A stretch of 64,000 nucleotides of DNA from Ostreococcus lucimarinus. Taxonomy: Eukaryota. The stretch lies in NCBI GenBank assembly GCA_000092065.1, contig CP000591.1. One strand, given 5' to 3'. Of this stretch, positions 13,569 through 22,068 are shown piece after piece. The notes under the pieces are model-generated. The model saw nothing but the letters and a program-made list of their open reading frames with translations. It searched no databases and was not told where the DNA came from. Position 1 is the first letter of the stretch, and every line of letters starts with the position of its first letter. The position numbers and the translations under genes are program-made.

Positions 13569-15401
13569 TCACGGCCGAGGCGTCGAATACACGTCCCACA
13601 GCGCGTGCGCGTCGTCGAGCGATTCCTGCGGTACCGCGCACACGTCCTTGATGAACGCTATCTTTCCATCATCGCATTTCCACTCCTCGAAACGCTCACG
13701 CAAGATGTGCCCCGTCATTTTCGTCCGCCGCGTGTCGTCTCTCAAGTGTTGCGAGACGAAGACGGCCCACTCGCACCGTCCTCGCTCAGGCATACCAAGA
13801 AGCTGCGTCGCGAAGGCGACGGTGATTTCGTCCGCCAACGCGTCCATGCCCTCGCCCTCTAGCACACCGATCGCGTTTAAGACGCCGAATAGGTGCCAAG
13901 CAAGCGACGCGTTCAAGACGTCATCCGAGTACGTGAGCGGGTGAAACGCCACGCGCACCTCCGCCGTGCTCGGCGACCCGCCTTCGTCCTCGGTGGACGC
14001 GGCGAGGGCGAGAATGTTGAACGCCACGTCGCGCAAGTGTGTCGCTTGGTTCGCGTCGAGTGCTTCGTAAGTCGCAACCGGCGGCAGCGGGTTCGCCGCG
14101 CGCTGTTGCGCGACGGCGTCGAGGTAGTTCTTCACCACGTCGCGCAGCGGCGACGTCGGTCCGGCGGCGAGCCACATGTGTAAGCCTAAGTTTTGATACC
14201 AACCCATCCCGTCATCGTCGCGCTCGACCTCACCGGCGAGAAGCTTGAATGCTTGCTCGCTGAACTCGTCGATGTACTTGCCCACCGACCCCGCGCGCCA
14301 GCGCGTGAGCTGTTGCTTGGCGTAGAACGCCACGTTTTTGCCGGCGCCGATTTGCGCCAAACACGTCGCCAAACGCGGATCTCCGTGCGCTGCCGCAGCG
14401 CGTGCAGCGCTCACGGTTCGACCACCGGCGACGTGCGTTAACGCCGCACGTCTACCGAACAGCTCTTCCTCGCAAGGCGCAGCGCGCGCGACTTGTTCTC
14501 GCAACCAAGCGCTCACGCCGGCGCGTCTTCGGTGCACCTCCGCCGCGGTGCCTCGAGACGCCCCGAGCTTGTCCTCGGCGAACAACTCACTCACGAGCGC
14601 CCACGCGCTGACTTCCGCCGCCGCGCGATCGCGCGCGACGACGTCGTCGCCATTACTATTCGCTAACGCCTCAACCACGGCCTCCAACTGTCGCAAGCAC
14701 GTCGCGGCGATGCCATACGGTTTCGATTCCGTCGACTCGCGCGAGCACGCCTGACGCAATCCCCCACTCGCGCGTCGCACCGACTGATCCAGGGCCACCT
14801 CCAGCGCACCCACGACGCCCGCAAACGTCATCTTCGTCCGAACCGCGCACGCGACGACGCCGTCGTCTCCGATCGCCGGCGTCGCCAACGCGCCGCGCGC
14901 GCCGAACGCGGCGCCGCGAGACCCCGCGAGCGCGCCGTACGCGTCCACCCCTCCCACCGACGCCTCCCGCGTCGCCGGCGCCGCGCGCGTCGACGCATAC
15001 CGCATCGACGCCGTCGCTCGCATCGCGTGTCCGAGCGCTCTCGCCATGGGCGGCGGCCGAGGCCTCGCGACCGCGTCGCCGCGCGCTTCGTTTGAATCCG
15101 TCTCCAACGCGCGCGCCTCATTTTCACCGTCATCCACGGATAAGAACGCCCCGAACGCGTCCGCGGTGGAGGTCTGACGCGCGCGCAACGCTTCGAGCGC
15201 GTCCTCGTGCGCGCGCAGCGCTTCCGCGGTGGCGCGCGAGTCGTAAAGGTCTACGATCGCATCGTCGCGCGCGTCTTCATCCATGAAATCGTCGCCGTCG
15301 ACGCGCTTCGCGAGACGACGCGCGCCGACGACGCCGAGCGGGACGTCGTCATCGTCCGAGACGTCGCTGTCGGCGTCGAGGAGACCGACGCGCGTGGCCA
15401 T
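13569..15401 (-). CDS. Conserved hypothetical protein (possibly a nucleoporin Nup96-like alpha-helical domain; identity not established)
   Basis: 610-codon ORF with an acidic N-terminus and a C-terminal helical region (ATCLAQIGAGKNVAFYAKQQLTRW...LAWHLFGVLNAIGVLEGEGMDALADEITVAFATQLLG). The nucleoporin assignment is only an impression. Confidence 0.45.
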   Translation of the reverse strand: MATRVGLLDADSDVSDDDDVPLGVVGARRLAKRVDGDDFMDEDARDDAIVDLYDSRATAEALRAHEDALEALRARQTSTADAFGAFLSVDDGENEARALETDSNEARGDAVARPRPPPMARALGHAMRATASMRYASTRAAPATREASVGGVDAYGALAGSRGAAFGARGALATPAIGDDGVVACAVRTKMTFAGVVGALEVALDQSVRRASGGLRQACSRESTESKPYGIAATCLRQLEAVVEALANSNGDDVVARDRAAAEVSAWALVSELFAEDKLGASRGTAAEVHRRRAGVSAWLREQVARAAPCEEELFGRRAALTHVAGGRTVSAARAAAAHGDPRLATCLAQIGAGKNVAFYAKQQLTRWRAGSVGKYIDEFSEQAFKLLAGEVERDDDGMGWYQNLGLHMWLAAGPTSPLRDVVKNYLDAVAQQRAANPLPPVATYEALDANQATHLRDVAFNILALAASTEDEGGSPSTAEVRVAFHPLTYSDDVLNASLAWHLFGVLNAIGVLEGEGMDALADEITVAFATQLLGMPERGRCEWAVFVSQHLRDDTRRTKMTGHILRERFEEWKCDDGKIAFIKDVCAVPQESLDDAHALWDVYSTPRP

Positions 15402-15528: not shown

Positions 15529-18500
15529 TCACGGAGCGATGGTGTCTAAAGCCATGTAGGTATCGCACCAGGCGGTGTGCAGGGCGCTCGGTTCCGTCGC
15601 GTCGCGAATCGGCGGTACGCCGCGGCCGCGATACGCCGCGCGCGTGAGCTTTTCCACTTCCTCCGGCGGTCGTTCGTTCGCTAAGTTATCCCAATCGATG
15701 TCGCAGAGCAGCGCGGATCGCTTGACTAATGTGGCGTCGTGCATGCGGTCTTTTGGGTTGACCACGAGAAGCGCGCGAGCCAAGGCGACGGCTTTGGGAT
15801 CGGCGTCGCCGCGGAAGATCGTGGATAAATCGCACCGACAAATTGACTCGTACGTCTTGTGCGTGACTTTCATCCCGAACGGTGGCGTCCCGTTGAGTAA
15901 GTGCACGATGAACGTCCCGAGCGAAAACCAGTCCGCGCGTTCGTCGTGGCCGACGCCGCGAACGACTTCGGGCGCCATGTACGCCGCGGCGCCGCACGCC
16001 GTAAACGTCTTTCCGGGCGTGTCGTCCGTCACCGCGAGATGTTTAGCGAAGCGGAAGTCAGTCAACCGCAGCGCGCCGTGCTGATCGATCGTCATCGTCT
16101 CCGGGTCCATTCCTCGGAATACGATGTCCATGGCGTGGACGTACTCGAACACGAGCGTAAACGCGGCGACGTAGTACTTGACGACTTCGGGCTTGGAGCC
16201 GCCGCCGCACGCGATGACAGCTTCGAGCGCACATCTCGGCGCGAATGGGTACGGAATGGAGATGAAACTCGAGTCTTTCGATGGGATGGCGGGTATGGGA
16301 ATGAATGCCGGCGGCTTGGCTGAGCCCGCCGTGAGCATTGTGATGATGGCGCGCTCGCGCAACACGCCCTCGACTCGCGCGAGCGATTCTGTTCTCGCGA
16401 GCGAGATCTGCACCGTCGCCTCCTTAGACGCCCCCTTCGTTTCGCGCAAGTGACCGAGCAACGTCATGTACAGCGCCTCACGCGAGGCTCGCTCGTCGTC
16501 CCCGAAACTTAATCGCCGCTCGTGCGGATCTAAAGCGCGCTGGGGCGATCGGATGCGTTCCATCGACGACGATCGCTCGAGAGTGGCGCTCGACGTCCGC
16601 ACGATCGCCTCGGTTCCGGTGACGTTTGTTATATCGGTCAGCTTAACGCGCCATACCTCAACGTCGTCGCTGATGGCTTGAATATTAGTCGCACACGGCG
16701 CGCCACTTCTCGAGAGAAGCGCGCGTTCACCAAAATATTGCCCACTCGTCAACTTGAGCACCACCCTCGGCGTCTCGCTCTCGTCGCGCGCATTCGCACG
16801 CACGGTGCACGACACATCCCCCCTACTGATGATGTACATAGCATTTATCTGCTGTCCCTGACGCGCGATGAGCTCGCTTGTTTGAGCCTTTACGAGAGAT
16901 TTCCCGCGCTTATCGACGATGTTCGTGGCGATTCGGCGCAAGTCGCTGATGCTCACGGCTTTCAGCGCGTCCACGCCGCGCAGCGCGCTCGTGAGCGTGT
17001 TTACGCTCGGCTCGTCGTCCTCGCGCATGAGACGCGTGTAAGTGGCGAAGTCAAGCACCCAGAGGACCACGTCACTGTTCGCGGTGACGGTCTCGTGCGG
17101 ATTTTGGGCGTGCGCCATGCACTGTTCGTTGAAGCACATTCTGTCGCCGCCTTTGCCATACGTTCGCACCTTGACGGCTTCCTTCTTCTCCGCATTCTCG
17201 TCTCCCTCGTTCTCGACCCACGCGACGTTGTCGCGCCCCGTGAGAGTGCCACTCTGTACGGCATAAAGCGCACGCAGCGAATACTTGTCGTTTTGCGTCA
17301 CGACGACATCGCCGTCGTACACTCTTTTCCTGTACATCGCCTCCGCGACTTCGTTCAAAATCGCATCCGAGACGCCGATAAATAAGAATGATTGCTTGAG
17401 AATCGATAATAACGCCGATTTGTCCTCCGCGGTGGCGATGGACAGATCTCCCATCTGCTCTTCCAGTGAACCTCTCGTGTTGAACGAGATATCGGACGGT
17501 AAACCGTAAGGGTGCACCACGCGATAACTGCGGCGCGTTTGCATGGTGAACGACGGCACGACGCGACGTCGAGGTCTCGCCGACGTTGGGAACGGCGACG
17601 AGAGCTGGTTCGCGCGATCGGGAAAGTTGAACAGCGCACTGACGCTCACGGACTTTCTCGGCGTGACGGGATCGGGATCGGGATGGGTTTCGTCCGGGAA
17701 GTCTTCAATCAAGATGACGATGACGGTGATGTCGTCCGTGCGCGTCTCGTATTGAAGCCAGAGCTTGTACGATTCCACCACGAGCGCGATTGCGCTCTGC
17801 TGTGGATCGCTCGTCGCCATCGCGGCTTTGATCACGCTTGTGGACGGAATGAATTCGAAAACTCCATCTGAAGCGATCACGATCGCCTTCGTGTCTTTGT
17901 TCAAGCGCACGCGCTCGATTTCCGGCGTCGCGACGACGCCGATGCGCTCGGCGACGGCGTCGCCTATGGAACGAGTAAACGCCGTGCCAGGATACATCCC
18001 ATTCTTCGCCCACAGTCGCGGGGGATCGCCATCGTCGTCTTGCTCCGTCCCCCAACACTGCACGGTGGGATCTTTGAACCCCTCGAGCTGATCGAGCGTC
18101 ATCACGCGCGCGCCCGCCTTCTTCACCCGCTCGCACTCATCCGCGCGAAACGGCGTCTGATCCGAACTCAAATCCACCGTCTCCACCACAACCTCTCCCT
18201 TATCGTCCGCCTTCTCTATCCCCATCGTCGCCCGCGAGTCCCCCACGTTTATCACGTACAAATCCCTCCCCTTCACGTGCGCGATGATCCCCGTCGTCCC
18301 GCTCAACGAATCGTCCACCTCGCTCCTTCGCAGCGCCTCGTTCGTCGTTCGAAACGCCTCCTCGTACCCTTTCGCGTCCCCAAACTCTCGCTTCGCCATC
18401 TCCATCGGCACTCTCATCGCCGCGAACCTCGCGCACTCCGTTCCAAACTCCCCGTGTCCGTCGAAGACGCCGAAGACGCACTCGTCGTCGCGATCTCCAA

Positions 18501-18885
18501 ATCTCGCCTCGCTCACGTGCGCGTCCTGGTTCGCCTTGCTCAGCGCCTCTGGGTAGTACCCTCGCTGCGAGCACGCCGCGTATCGCATCGCGTACGACTG
18601 CGCGCGACCGCGTTCGTCCGTGAACGCCACTCGGACCGTCTTCGCGCCCTTGACGCCGGCGAGACGGGCGTTGTATTGCTCCTGCGTCAGCGGGCCGCCG
18701 CGCAGGCGCACTTGGTACCGCACGGGGGCGTCGTCCGTCGGATCGACGCATTCGTCGTCGTCGCGCGCGCGCGCGCGATCGGCGACGGGACGAACGGGGC
18801 GCGCGCGCGATGGAGACGCGGGCGCGCGAGGCGCCGCGTCGCGCGCGGCGCTCGCGGCGTCCGCGGCGGAGGACGCGCATCCCAT
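15529..18885 (-). CDS. Protein phosphatase 2C, two cyclic-nucleotide-binding-like domains and a protein-kinase-like (probably pseudokinase) domain, with an N-terminal MGC acylation motif
   Basis: PP2C motifs FGVFDGHGEFG, VGDSRA, ASDGVFE and DDITVIV. Two CNB-like domains (..YGKGGDRMCFNEQCM.., ..GQYFGERALLS..). The C-terminal kinase fold has YMAPE and DWFSLG, but FRGMDPET replaces HRDLKPEN, DFR replaces DFG and no VAIK lysine is evident. N-terminus MGCASS. Confidence 0.8.
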   Translation of the reverse strand: MGCASSAADAASAARDAAPRAPASPSRARPVRPVADRARARDDDECVDPTDDAPVRYQVRLRGGPLTQEQYNARLAGVKGAKTVRVAFTDERGRAQSYAMRYAACSQRGYYPEALSKANQDAHVSEARFGDRDDECVFGVFDGHGEFGTECARFAAMRVPMEMAKREFGDAKGYEEAFRTTNEALRRSEVDDSLSGTTGIIAHVKGRDLYVINVGDSRATMGIEKADDKGEVVVETVDLSSDQTPFRADECERVKKAGARVMTLDQLEGFKDPTVQCWGTEQDDDGDPPRLWAKNGMYPGTAFTRSIGDAVAERIGVVATPEIERVRLNKDTKAIVIASDGVFEFIPSTSVIKAAMATSDPQQSAIALVVESYKLWLQYETRTDDITVIVILIEDFPDETHPDPDPVTPRKSVSVSALFNFPDRANQLSSPFPTSARPRRRVVPSFTMQTRRSYRVVHPYGLPSDISFNTRGSLEEQMGDLSIATAEDKSALLSILKQSFLFIGVSDAILNEVAEAMYRKRVYDGDVVVTQNDKYSLRALYAVQSGTLTGRDNVAWVENEGDENAEKKEAVKVRTYGKGGDRMCFNEQCMAHAQNPHETVTANSDVVLWVLDFATYTRLMREDDEPSVNTLTSALRGVDALKAVSISDLRRIATNIVDKRGKSLVKAQTSELIARQGQQINAMYIISRGDVSCTVRANARDESETPRVVLKLTSGQYFGERALLSRSGAPCATNIQAISDDVEVWRVKLTDITNVTGTEAIVRTSSATLERSSSMERIRSPQRALDPHERRLSFGDDERASREALYMTLLGHLRETKGASKEATVQISLARTESLARVEGVLRERAIITMLTAGSAKPPAFIPIPAIPSKDSSFISIPYPFAPRCALEAVIACGGGSKPEVVKYYVAAFTLVFEYVHAMDIVFRGMDPETMTIDQHGALRLTDFRFAKHLAVTDDTPGKTFTACGAAAYMAPEVVRGVGHDERADWFSLGTFIVHLLNGTPPFGMKVTHKTYESICRCDLSTIFRGDADPKAVALARALLVVNPKDRMHDATLVKRSALLCDIDWDNLANERPPEEVEKLTRAAYRGRGVPPIRDATEPSALHTAWCDTYMALDTIAP

Positions 18886-19086: not shown

Positions 19087-22068
19087 CTAGAGCGCGTCGC
19101 GCAAGACGCCGTCGGCGCGGTACTTGTCCTTCTCGGCCTGCCGCGCTCGCGCCCTGTCGGGGTCGACGCGACGAATGCCTTGGATGCCCACGGTCGGGGG
19201 ACGACGCTCGCGTTCCCAAACTTCTTCTTCGTTGTCGATGTGGGTGGTGACGGAGAGCTTCGTGCCGCGTTTGGCGGCTTGTTCAATCTTTTCGCGAATG
19301 GCGTCGGATTGTAACGCGCTGAACGGGGCGGCGTCTTTTCCGCCGCCGGCGCCGCCGCTTTGGGAGCCGGACTTTCTAAAATCAAATACTTGTTTACCGC
19401 CGCCGCCGCCGCCGCCGTGCCACCCGCCAGCCTCCATGCTCAGACCGTTCGAGGCGATTTGTTGCAGCGACTGGTACACCGCCTCCACGTTCAACTCCAT
19501 GTTCAGTTGTTTCTCTTCAATCGTGTCGTTGCTGATGATGATGTGTGACACGTTCGACGCGGTGTCTTGGCCAACAACTTGCACTTCCTTGACAGCGATC
19601 ATGACTTGCGCGATTTGCTCTGAAATATTTACTATGTCGGCGTGCATTTGTTGCATCGCGAGCTTGATGGCGCCCATCGTCGCCCCGGGCGCCGCTCCCG
19701 AGACTGGTACATTCGTATCCTTGAATCCACCCGCTGTGACCGTTCCGATTGCACCAGCTTGCTCCCTCGCACGTCTTTTCGTATCCTCTTGGGCGCGTTC
19801 CTGCTGCAGCAACTCGCGCCAATTCGAGCACACGTTGCGCGTTGTTTCTTCTAAAAATCTTCGCATGTCGCACTCGCTCAACGCGATGCGCGCCATCTTT
19901 GGTTTGTTCAGCGCTTGTAGCGCGTGCAAAAACTCATCCTCGAAGTTACGCAATAGAGTCGGTTGATGTTGCGCGCAAATATCATAAAACACCGCGTGGT
20001 CCATGACGAGCGCCTCGACGTGTTTGTCAAACGGCATGGCGCACAACATGCCTTTATAGAACCCGGAAAGTAAACCGGGGTTGAGCACTGTGCCCGGGCC
20101 GCGGAGCAAACCTTTTTCTTCCGCGAGTTCGATTTGCTGTTCTCGCAATCGCTTGCGCTTGATTTTCTGTACGTGGGAGTGGTGGAATCCGGACGCCTCG
20201 TCGGGGGAATACGAAACTCTCCCGTTGAGCGTGATGATGAACTTATCCGCAAGTTCGTACGGATAGCATATACGTGCGCCTCGCGCGTACATGTGCGTAT
20301 CCATGGTACGACAGAGGATCTCTATCACAATCCCGTCGGGCTGCACCGTGCCATTGGCCTTTAAACCTATGGACAGCGCTTTACCGTAAATGTAAAAGTT
20401 GACGTCGGCGCGAATCGCCTCGGGGAGCGGTTGGATGATATCTCGGTTCACCAGTTTTTGAGGTTTCGCGGAAGCCTTGTAGTGCGACCGGACGCGCGAT
20501 TTCAATCCGTTTGGCATCTTGTGCTCGGACAAAAGTTCGCGTACGTGGTTCATGAGCACCGCGAAGCGATTCCCGGGCGAGTCTTCATCCATGGACATGT
20601 TCACGCCGGAGATGATGGCGGAAAATACAAAGCCCCCGGTGATCATCACGAGGATGGCTATGACGCGTTCATCGACAGTGGTCGGAACGACGTTACCGTA
20701 GCCTACCGTCGTGAGTGTTTGCACCGACCAAAACAACGCGGCAACGTACATTTCACTCTTGTGCGACTCTACACCGCTCGCGTCTTCGCGTTGAAAGTCG
20801 TACACGTAGGCGTACGCACACGCCATCCAGTGAGAAAGGAGCACTAAAAGCGCGAGCAAGCGCCCGAGAGTCACCATTTTATACACGCGCATAAGATTCT
20901 CTTGATAACGTTCCAAGATTCTACCCGTGCGCATCACGCGAAGTAGGCGCAGCATTTTGAACAAACGCAGCACCTCGGGCACTTGTGAATTCTCAGCCGC
21001 GGCGCCACACGCCGCCTCAGACTCCCACGAACACGTCAACGTGCCATCGATGCTGCGAGAAACGTAATCCACGGGGATTAGCGATATGGCGTCCGGAATG
21101 AACCAGCCTTTCAAGTAATGCTTTTGAATCTTCCACAAATTCGTCACGTAGTGAAAGTCGTCGTCATCGGCGCTCGTCTCCCAGTACGCCGTGAAGAAGT
21201 TGAAAAACATGTCAATGTAGAAATAAATATCGACCAGAAAATCCGCGACGTACCACAATCCGTACGACGGCTCGCTGAACCCGATGCGATAGGGCACGGA
21301 AATCGCGATGTACAGCAACAGGAAAATTTGTAGAAAATCCCAATACTGCCGCAGCTTCGTCGTCGGGTGCATGACGAATAACGATCTCGCCTCGTCGTCA
21401 TCGCCGTATTTCGCGATCGCCGAGGCTTCATCTTCGTCCTCATCGCTGTCCGCCGCGTTCCAATCGGCCTCGGACTCGTCGCCGTGATCCAAGAAATTTT
21501 CCAACCGGGTGGTATCAAACATCTTTTGCTTGTGCTTCTCCGACGCCGCCGCCGTCATCGCCGCCCTCGCCATCTTATTCTCATCTAACCGCCGCCTCGT
21601 GTCGCCCTCCTCCTTTTCGCGCAGCGCCTTCGCGCTCGTCGCCAACCCATGCTTCGCTCTCGCCGCGCTTCCCCGCGGCACGTTGACGATGCCCGCCTTC
21701 GCCGCCTCCTTCGCCCTTCGAATCGCATCCTTCACCTTCTCCGCCCGCGTCATCGCTCGCGTCCCGTTCGCCGCGTCGAGCTTTCCATCGCCATCCCCGC
21801 GCGCGCCCTCGTCGCTTCCCGCGCTGTCGTGCGCGCTCGCCGTCGTCGCGTCGCGCGCGTCGCTCGCGTTTGGTGTTGCGCCCGCGCCGAAGAATTCGTC
21901 GTCGGAATCGCCGTCGCGCGTCGCGCGCGTCGCGCGATCGCGCGTCTTCGCGCGCGCGCGCTCGGCGGCGGCCATCGCGCGCCTGCGCGGCGACGCGACG
22001 TCGCGACGACGCGGTGTGCGACGCGTCGCGCCGCGACCGACCGACCGACGCGCGCGTCCGTGCGCCAC
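19087..22068 (-). CDS. Voltage-gated K+ channel with a C-terminal cyclic-nucleotide-binding domain (EAG/KAT/AKT-like)
   Basis: Pore signature TTVGYGNVVP (GYG filter). S4-like segment LFKMLRLLRVMRTGRILERY. Six-transmembrane-helix topology. CNBD after the pore (RTMDTHMYARGARICYPYELADKFIITLNGRV). Long acidic and coiled-coil tail. Confidence 0.8.
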   Translation of the reverse strand: MAHGRARRSVGRGATRRTPRRRDVASPRRRAMAAAERARAKTRDRATRATRDGDSDDEFFGAGATPNASDARDATTASAHDSAGSDEGARGDGDGKLDAANGTRAMTRAEKVKDAIRRAKEAAKAGIVNVPRGSAARAKHGLATSAKALREKEEGDTRRRLDENKMARAAMTAAASEKHKQKMFDTTRLENFLDHGDESEADWNAADSDEDEDEASAIAKYGDDDEARSLFVMHPTTKLRQYWDFLQIFLLLYIAISVPYRIGFSEPSYGLWYVADFLVDIYFYIDMFFNFFTAYWETSADDDDFHYVTNLWKIQKHYLKGWFIPDAISLIPVDYVSRSIDGTLTCSWESEAACGAAAENSQVPEVLRLFKMLRLLRVMRTGRILERYQENLMRVYKMVTLGRLLALLVLLSHWMACAYAYVYDFQREDASGVESHKSEMYVAALFWSVQTLTTVGYGNVVPTTVDERVIAILVMITGGFVFSAIISGVNMSMDEDSPGNRFAVLMNHVRELLSEHKMPNGLKSRVRSHYKASAKPQKLVNRDIIQPLPEAIRADVNFYIYGKALSIGLKANGTVQPDGIVIEILCRTMDTHMYARGARICYPYELADKFIITLNGRVSYSPDEASGFHHSHVQKIKRKRLREQQIELAEEKGLLRGPGTVLNPGLLSGFYKGMLCAMPFDKHVEALVMDHAVFYDICAQHQPTLLRNFEDEFLHALQALNKPKMARIALSECDMRRFLEETTRNVCSNWRELLQQERAQEDTKRRAREQAGAIGTVTAGGFKDTNVPVSGAAPGATMGAIKLAMQQMHADIVNISEQIAQVMIAVKEVQVVGQDTASNVSHIIISNDTIEEKQLNMELNVEAVYQSLQQIASNGLSMEAGGWHGGGGGGGKQVFDFRKSGSQSGGAGGGKDAAPFSALQSDAIREKIEQAAKRGTKLSVTTHIDNEEEVWERERRPPTVGIQGIRRVDPDRARARQAEKDKYRADGVLRDAL

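Follow-up and report, generated by a model that had tools for sequence, protein, structure and literature searches.

The 64,000 nt stretch of Ostreococcus lucimarinus DNA analysed here (the window; GenBank assembly GCA_000092065.1, contig CP000591.1) carries on its minus strand, at nt 15529–18885, a gene whose product joins a PP2C-type protein phosphatase to two cyclic-nucleotide-binding (CNB) domains and an AGC-type kinase fold. The product is the Ostreococcus orthologue of the clade-L PP2Cs and is likely to be a phosphatase with a non-catalytic regulatory or docking cassette derived from cGMP-dependent protein kinase (PKG). An initial annotation of the gene had proposed a phosphatase with degenerate sensor and pseudokinase modules rather than a cGMP-dependent kinase, and this is supported by the sequence, the predicted fold and the genetics of land-plant homologs. 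Assignment of the whole gene to the PP2C19/At2g20050-type is based on the list of open reading frames (ORFs), an identical protein (P0001) found in marine metagenome assemblies, colinear homologs, and synteny at the loci L001, L002 and L004. All features described below lie on the minus strand.

The ORF is uninterrupted, consists of a single exon and specifies 1118 amino acids followed by a stop codon. Beginning with the N-terminus MGCASS, the domains are ordered as PP2C, CNB-A, CNB-B and AGC-kinase fold. Pfam detected PP2C at residues 117–360 (E 2e-28), two cNMP_binding stretches (PF00027, E 6e-15), the better of which (residues 666–754) lies in CNB-B, and Pkinase at residues 886–1051 (E 3e-22), the last covering only profile positions 84–255, which correspond to the C-lobe. 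In a phmmer search of the Protein Data Bank (PDB), the closest solved relatives of the C-terminal part were PKG I, RSK and PKA (E about 1e-27). A full-length AlphaFold2 (AF2) model, built on a 72-sequence family alignment and read through its secondary structure and predicted local distance difference test (pLDDT) values, gave a mean pLDDT of 77.8 and a predicted template modelling score (pTM) of 0.60. The kinase fold in this model is bilobal and complete, with β1–5 and αC at residues 804–886 followed by the helices of the C-lobe. Foldseek ranked the human PKG R-C complex first (7lv3, E 7e-28); over 291–294 columns, the kinase part can be superposed on PKA and PKG catalytic domains with a root-mean-square deviation of 2.6–3.1 Å, while the CNB part resembles PKG and the PKA regulatory subunit (PKA-R) and the N-terminal part resembles PP2C structures. 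The PP2C-2xCNB-kinase architecture given in the initial annotation is therefore recovered by Pfam, AF2 and Foldseek alike.

Residues of the kinase-like domain were mapped to PKA positions using the established PKA numbering. The N-lobe (residues 801–890, nt 16216–16485), comprising β1–β5 and αC, was delimited by AF2 secondary structure (pLDDT 62–91), Foldseek and the residue table, and the C-lobe (residues 891–1060, nt 15706–16215) by the Pfam Pkinase and PDB phmmer matches. Alignments to the RSK, PKA and PKG structures (phmmer) place IVFRGMDPET on IVYRDLKPEN and DFRFAK on DFGLSK. The catalytic-loop remnant FRGMDPET (nt 16096–16119) occupies the position of YRDLKPEN, so that the catalytic Asp (D166) is replaced by Gly925, K168 by Asp927 and N171 by Thr930. 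The DFG motif reads DFR (nt 16051–16059), with Asp943 kept and the Gly (G186) replaced by Arg945. Both readings agree with those of the initial annotation, and the family alignments described below confirm them in the same register. The β3 Lys, which that annotation had been unable to identify, can now be placed: the strand reads ATVQIS (nt 16402–16419), and the K72 position is occupied by Val825, beside Gln826. No Gly-rich loop (GxGxxG) was found at the β1–β2 turn, which reads TLLGH and has a single Gly.

The scaffold of the kinase fold is retained, as had also been noted from the APE motif. It includes the αC Glu844, the DFG Asp943, APE (Glu973), Asp985 (D220) and Arg1047 (R280), as well as the T-loop Thr962 (T197 of PKA) in the activation segment KTFTACGAAAYMAPE (nt 15967–16011; family alignment, PKA numbering); in the residue table, Glu973, Asp985 and Arg1047 show no variation. 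The pocket that would receive a phosphorylated T-loop Thr is likewise present (Arg924 for R165, Lys948 for K189, and Thr962 in a TFTxCG...APE context) and is nearly invariant among the 119 family members introduced below, which suggests that the domain could still be switched through T-loop phosphorylation. From these residue states, the kinase domain is predicted to be catalytically inactive.

The register of these alignments was controlled using 145 of the 150 best matches of an exhaustive phmmer search with the pseudokinase domain alone. Asp at HRD and Gly at DFG occurred together in 126/145, typically as YRDLKPEN and DFG, the matches being mostly canonical kinases. The register is considered sound because it recovers these two residues in the large majority of relatives. 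The same search did not resolve the boundary between dead and live relatives, as the Ostreococcus domain has diverged so far that ordinary AGC kinases score like other family members.

The distribution of these changes was assessed in a table of 119 aligned full-length members, from chlorophytes to angiosperms, of which nine belong to the Ostreococcus clade and 110 to other lineages (none of the 120 matches listed is from a monocot, and rice is absent). At the D166 position there is no Asp in any member, the residues being Gly in 110, Ser in seven, and Ala and Thr in one each. Asn is found at the N171 position in only 2/119, and Arg occupies the DFG Gly position in 113/119; Gly or Ser at the position of the catalytic Asp accounts for 117/119. 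The DFG Asp, APE, D220, R280 and T197 are conserved throughout. Judged by this distribution, both the MGC start and the dead-kinase signature, which combines (F/Y)RG and DFR with the absence of Asn171 and of a Gly-loop, date back to the ancestor of the PP2C-CNB-kinase family of Viridiplantae. The K72 position differs: it is Val in all nine members of the Ostreococcus clade, and Lys in 84 and Arg in 24 of the 110 others.

The two CNB domains were examined in the same way. CNB-A (residues 486–625, nt 17011–17430) was recognised by Pfam, Foldseek and alignment to PKA RII-alpha, and CNB-B (residues 626–765, nt 16591–17010) by Pfam and a confident AF2 prediction (pLDDT 90–96); the β-roll fold is recognisable in both (PF00027 and matches to PKA-R and PKG). 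Their phosphate-binding cassettes (PBCs) are FNEQCMAHAQNPHETVTA in CNB-A (nt 17080–17133) and FGERALLSRSGAPCATNI in CNB-B (nt 16681–16734). When aligned with PKA RII-alpha, FNEQCMAHAQNPHETV of CNB-A falls on FGELALMYNTPRAATI, so that the PBC Gly is replaced by Asn586 and the Arg by Pro596 or, with the Pro as anchor, by His597; there is no Arg either way. In CNB-B, FGERALLSRSGAPCATN falls on FGELALVTNKPRAAS and the Arg is replaced by Cys731. The Gly-Glu pair of the cassette, which makes contact with the ribose, is Asn586-Glu587 in CNB-A and Gly719-Glu720 in CNB-B. The absence of the PBC Arg from both domains, as stated in the initial annotation, is borne out by these alignments and by the family alignment.

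Within the family, the PBC-A Gly is Asn in 9/9 members of the Ostreococcus clade and Gly in 110/110 others. The PBC-A Arg is Pro in all nine, while the others have Arg (50), Leu (56) or Gly (4), and the PBC-B Arg is Cys in all nine and is kept in 33/110 others, all of which are algae. To judge from the alignment, the Ostreococcus clade is set apart within this set by just three losses: that of the β3 Lys, that of the PBC Gly in CNB-A, and that of the PBC Arg from both domains together. The question raised by the initial annotation, of whether algal orthologues share the substitutions, is answered by this pattern, since the catalytic-loop and DFR changes are common to the family and the K72 and PBC losses just listed are found only in the Ostreococcus clade. 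Most green algae (chlorophytes, prasinophytes and basal streptophytes) have the PBC Arg in both CNBs (KPRAATV, AKRAANV); from bryophytes to gymnosperms mostly the PBC-A Arg alone is kept; and every angiosperm in the set (e.g. P0053, P0063, P0094, P0100) has Leu at PBC-A (KPLQASV) and lacks the PBC-B Arg. This pattern across lineages indicates at least two degenerations of the sensor, one in Ostreococcus and one in seed plants, and the angiosperm changes bear on whether the angiosperm 'plant PKG' binds cGMP in the canonical manner. A separate feature of the Ostreococcus clade is an acidic insertion of about 25 amino acids in CNB-A (..DNVAWVENEGDENAEKKEAVK.., residues about 546–570, nt about 17176–17250), for which pLDDT is below 50.

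The PP2C (PPM) catalytic domain (residues 96–395, nt 17701–18600) was defined by Pfam, by alignment to PPM1K and by pLDDT values mostly above 90. It has every one of the motifs NQD, DGHGE, GDSRA, ASDG and TDDIT, and these are invariant or nearly so across the family, as are the metal-coordinating acidic residues D121, D142, D216, D340 and D384/D385. The initial annotation had found all metal-binding Asp motifs in place, and the PPM1K and family alignments leave this unchanged. The protein also carries a family-specific PP2C flap, LDQLEG.KDP..QCWG.E.DDDGDPPRLW, in which columns L264–W292 are invariant in the family alignment. Going by these residues, the PP2C active site is intact.

In translation, the N-terminus MGCASS (nt 18868–18885) has Gly2, Cys3 and Ser6 of the consensus for N-myristoylation and S-palmitoylation. 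The earlier description of it as a classic acylation signal stands as a motif match only. An MGC start is present in 103/119 family members, plus four with over-extended gene models, and anchoring to the membrane via myristoyl-Gly2 and palmitoyl-Cys3 is plausible, given the motif and the plasma-membrane site of Arabidopsis PP2C19. No report of PP2C19 acylation was found in the literature searched. Among the close relatives, the gene calls of P0002 and P0004 (1127 and 1161 amino acids) have 9–43 extra residues before the MGC, compared with 1118 amino acids in the NCBI model of O. tauri; these residues are probably an over-extension by prokaryote-style gene callers.

Selective constraint was estimated for each domain as the ratio of nonsynonymous to synonymous substitution rates (dN/dS, Nei-Gojobori) between the PP2C gene of the window and two orthologues. 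Values were 0.12–0.13 for PP2C, 0.13–0.14 for CNB-A, 0.14–0.18 for CNB-B, 0.08–0.09 for the N-lobe and 0.15–0.21 for the C-lobe, and are approximate because dS is near saturation (0.7–2.7). The N-lobe shows 82–85% amino acid identity between species, comparable to the PP2C domain. Every folded domain is under purifying selection, which implies that the cassette still works, most likely in a non-catalytic role.

Apart from the identical protein in metagenomes, eight more clusters of 63–74% identity were found. The next step down, at about 36% identity, is a large group of Viridiplantae proteins of like architecture, with members in Chlamydomonas, Volvox, Cymbomonas, Chlorokybus, Klebsormidium, mosses, ferns, gymnosperms and angiosperms. 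The nine clusters look like orthologues within a genus-level Ostreococcus clade, and the occurrence of the identical protein and of the eight clusters in public assemblies shows that the gene is no artefact. Homology to named members of the wider family is full-length and colinear (E 1e-130 to 1e-165, 32–39% identity), with coverage mostly 85–95% (58–99% over the listed matches). The next-closest marine relative (P0183 at locus L005, in the cluster of P0013) is about 36% identical and lies on a green-algal contig of 55% GC with other neighbour genes; the PBC Arg is retained in both of its CNBs, and its β3 residue is Arg.

The family has been described in land plants. At2g20050 is PP2C19, a clade-L PP2C. 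At the plasma membrane, it and PP2C35 dephosphorylate NPH3 and further NRL proteins, and chloroplast accumulation is impaired in pp2c19 mutants of both Arabidopsis and Marchantia (PMC13017905). Action of the phosphatase on phototropin-pathway substrates at the plasma membrane is known from these two plants only. Its kinase-like domain has been 'predicted to be catalytically inactive' (Sullivan et al., 2026 Plant Cell, PMC13017905). The inference of an inactive kinase is thus already in print for Arabidopsis, and the Ostreococcus protein is an orthologue of a described family. Arabidopsis PP2C19, Marchantia MpPP2C19, Medicago DLM1 and the rice 'PKG' have the same domain order and are colinear with the Ostreococcus protein at 32–36% identity over about 90% of its length (E about 1e-137). 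These PP2C19-type proteins share with it (F/Y)RG, DFR, the PP2C flap and the T-loop Thr, but the Ostreococcus clade lacks the β3 Lys and the CNB-A PBC Gly and has the CNB-A insertion and a C-terminal extension, MALDTIAP. To our knowledge, NPH3/NRL proteins, the land-plant substrates, have not been reported from prasinophytes. Literature searches turned up no paper devoted to the combination of pseudokinase, PP2C and cyclic nucleotide-binding, and neither algal data nor a family-wide residue table in print; the Ostreococcus PP2C-CNB-kinase protein is not singled out in the kinome paper on O. tauri.

Among algae, Chlamydomonas CHLRE_10g443550 and Cymbomonas CYMTET_7243 have the same architecture, dead catalytic loop, DFR and MGC start as the Ostreococcus protein. 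Unlike the Ostreococcus clade, proteins of this type keep both PBCs (FGELALMYxKPRAATV, FGERALLxxAKRAANV) and have Lys or Arg at β3, and from their cassette sequences the chlorophyte and prasinophyte members could still sense cyclic nucleotide monophosphates (cNMPs). Outside the family, animal and apicomplexan PKG (7lv3, 5dyk) is the best match to the CNB-CNB-kinase part in both structure and sequence; PKG and the regulatory and catalytic subunits of PKA have in common with this part an inhibitor-like segment, the AGC tail, the RD-pocket and the T-loop Thr. PKG has no PP2C domain, however, and retains features that the Ostreococcus protein lacks, namely an intact Gly-loop, the VAIK Lys, the HRD Asp, the Asn, DFG and the PBC Arg/Thr. 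Regulatory pseudokinases such as JAK JH2, STRAD and KSR keep the kinase fold under selection after catalytic loss and are joined to an active enzyme by fusion or as its partner. In the Ostreococcus protein the partner in cis is a PP2C phosphatase rather than a kinase, the comparison being one of general knowledge.

Taken together, the protein would be a lipid-anchored and probably catalytically competent PPM/PP2C phosphatase. Its C-terminal two-thirds would represent a PKG-derived cassette in which a basic segment resembling an inhibitor is followed by CNB-A, CNB-B and an AGC kinase fold, and which presumably has no kinase function left. Four elements would have gone before green algae and land plants split: the catalytic base, the Asn that binds Mg, the Gly of DFG and the Gly-rich loop. 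The Ostreococcus lineage would then have lost the ATP-anchoring β3 Lys, the Arg of both CNBs that binds the cNMP phosphate, and the CNB-A PBC Gly. These later losses make canonical binding of both ATP and cAMP/cGMP unlikely in the Ostreococcus protein. Most likely the cassette serves the phosphatase as a non-catalytic module for regulation or docking, such as an intramolecular latch or a substrate scaffold, and it may be switched by phosphorylation of the T-loop.

The inhibitor-like segment is a basic linker, RPRRRVVPSFTMQTRRSYRVVHPY (residues 437–460, nt 17506–17577), identified in the family alignment; its inhibitor-like nature is inferred. Such a segment, placed about 30–40 residues upstream of CNB-A, is conserved family-wide, reading RRxxSKxKRA[AS]IE (KRA[AS]IE) in algae, SRARLRAIE in land plants and TRRSYRV in the present protein. 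PKA-R and PKG carry their RRxA/S-I inhibitor (pseudo)substrate at this same position before CNB-A. The linker could be what remains of an autoinhibitory segment directed at the pseudokinase cleft, and the linker and the near-invariant phospho-Thr pocket hint, at the level of sequence, at a surviving latch of the regulatory-catalytic (R:C) type. A tentative extension of this idea to the whole 'plant PKG' family would see its members as membrane PP2Cs under a dead R:C-type latch, formed by linker, CNBs and pseudokinase cleft, and switched by T-loop phosphorylation or by partners but not by cGMP. It is equally speculative that, within such a scheme, both nucleotide pockets (ATP and cNMP) would have been lost in Ostreococcus and, in parallel, in angiosperms, with the cassette remaining as constrained as the phosphatase. 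If the latch were real, the main candidate for a cGMP-dependent kinase of plants and green algae would be removed. The family-wide residue table may in any case inform the debate on whether plants have a PKG, as it shows the catalytic Asp in 0/119 members and independent loss of PBC Arg in Ostreococcus and angiosperms. Ostreococcus is compact and, as far as is known, genetically tractable, and its protein is a natural 'double-dead' variant for probing the role of the cassette.

Several points weigh against a phosphatase with a non-catalytic regulatory cassette. Some proteins without the HRD Asp keep weak kinase activity, and the DFG Asp, αC Glu and T-loop Thr are retained here. The AF2 pLDDT of the inhibitor-like linker is only 30–42, with no confident placement, so that docking of the linker is unsupported by the model. 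In Arabidopsis, an N-terminal VENUS tag, which precludes myristoylation, neither removes PP2C19 from the plasma membrane nor prevents it from complementing the mutant (PMC11775391); the MGC motif may accordingly not be the chief membrane determinant. The PP2C domain of Arabidopsis PP2C19 alone rescues, and mutants of the CNBs (G565A, G707A) and of the kinase domain (D923N, T937A), as well as deletions, all complement. The outcome was the same for Medicago DLM1, where the PP2C domain alone suffices genetically (bioRxiv 10.1101/2025.04.28.650909). Land-plant genetics thus finds the cassette dispensable for the phenotypes tested and offers nothing positive on its role. Lastly, according to the summary in PMC11638329, Shen 2019 reported for the rice 'PKG' a kinase activity stimulated by cGMP and a phosphatase activity inhibited by it.

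Among other explanations, the degenerate CNBs might sense another ligand, or an intrinsic peptide in the manner of the CNBHD of KCNH channels, in which case regulation would depend on a ligand but not on cNMPs. The β-roll folds are conserved and, for CNB-B, predicted with the high confidence noted above, and the altered PBCs (FNEQCMAHAQxPHETV and G(A/T)PCATNI) are almost invariant inside the Ostreococcus clade, a pattern that points to selection for a new surface and not to drift. Conservation of the PBCs could equally come from packing between domains, however, and with the case for a ligand drawn from modelling and sequence this explanation is considered unlikely.

It is improbable that the CNB and kinase-like parts are slowly decaying remnants without function, leaving PP2C as the only domain that matters. 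Such decay would fit the rescue of Arabidopsis and Medicago mutants by PP2C alone, and the progressive loss of ligand-binding and catalytic residues, which occurred independently in Ostreococcus and angiosperms. It sits poorly with the dN/dS of 0.08–0.21 across CNB-A, CNB-B and both lobes, and with an N-lobe conserved like the phosphatase. The architecture has also been kept from chlorophytes to angiosperms, with R924, K948, T962, APE, D985 and R1047 nearly invariant, and a useless 2 kb would be unlikely to persist in the compact genomes of Ostreococcus.

A genuine, atypical cyclic-nucleotide-dependent kinase that uses non-canonical residues, such as Asp927 or the DFG Asp943, is very improbable. 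It is favoured by database names, since the cluster of 70% identity includes the O. tauri protein XP_003081891/Q00Z65, labelled 'cGMP-dependent protein kinase' and 'putative PKG-Ib', and metagenome copies bear similar names. The rice activity cited above comes from the same family, the kinase fold is complete with D943, E844, APE and T962 conserved, and Asp927 is invariant in the Ostreococcus clade. Against this, five catalytic or ATP-binding elements (the Gly-loop, K72, D166, N171 and the DFG Gly) are gone together. Asp927 lies at the position of Lys168, a residue that in PKA touches the gamma-phosphate; as this position is Ser in 90/110 of the other members, Asp927 does not qualify as a conserved replacement for the catalytic base. 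In addition, both PBC Arg are missing, and kinase-domain mutants or deletions complement in Arabidopsis and Medicago. On the residue evidence, the label 'cGMP-dependent protein kinase', which databases give to the present protein as well as to its O. tauri orthologue, is almost certainly wrong, and 'PP2C phosphatase with a pseudokinase/CNB cassette' would be better. Mis-registered alignments or a faulty gene model, for which the very divergent N-lobe and its omission from the Pfam Pkinase match might speak, are rejected as the source of the apparent losses, because three independent alignments, among them those with At2g20050-type proteins and PKG, share one register, the canonical-kinase control fits, the AF2/Foldseek superposition covers both lobes, and the ORF is unbroken and colinear with its orthologues.

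The AGC-type C-terminal tail (residues 1061–1118, nt 15532–15705) was recognised in the family alignment, has a dN/dS of 0.08–0.28 and ends in W-x-x-x-Y plus MALDTIAP. The latter is an eight-residue extension (nt 15532–15555) of the Ostreococcus clade that follows the W-x-x-x-[YFW] motif closing every other family member.

The gene order CNBD-type K+ channel (Ion_trans), PP2C gene and Nup96 is kept in the three relatives looked up (P0002, P0006 and P0009), in regions of 58–62% GC. The downstream neighbour (nt 13569–15401) encodes a Nup96-type nucleoporin (PF12110, E 4e-59), an ordinary gene that is syntenic in the relatives. Upstream (nt 19087–22068) lies the gene for a 993-residue CNBD-family K+ channel with the selectivity filter TTVGYGN, which matches EAG, HCN and AKT channels in the PDB (E 3e-30). 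A functional link between the phosphatase and the adjacent channel was considered on account of the synteny and rejected, as synteny of the whole region is conserved among these close genomes. The alignment of the channel reaches the C-linker/CNBHD, yet Pfam sees Ion_trans alone, so that the CNB-like domain of the channel also looks degenerate.

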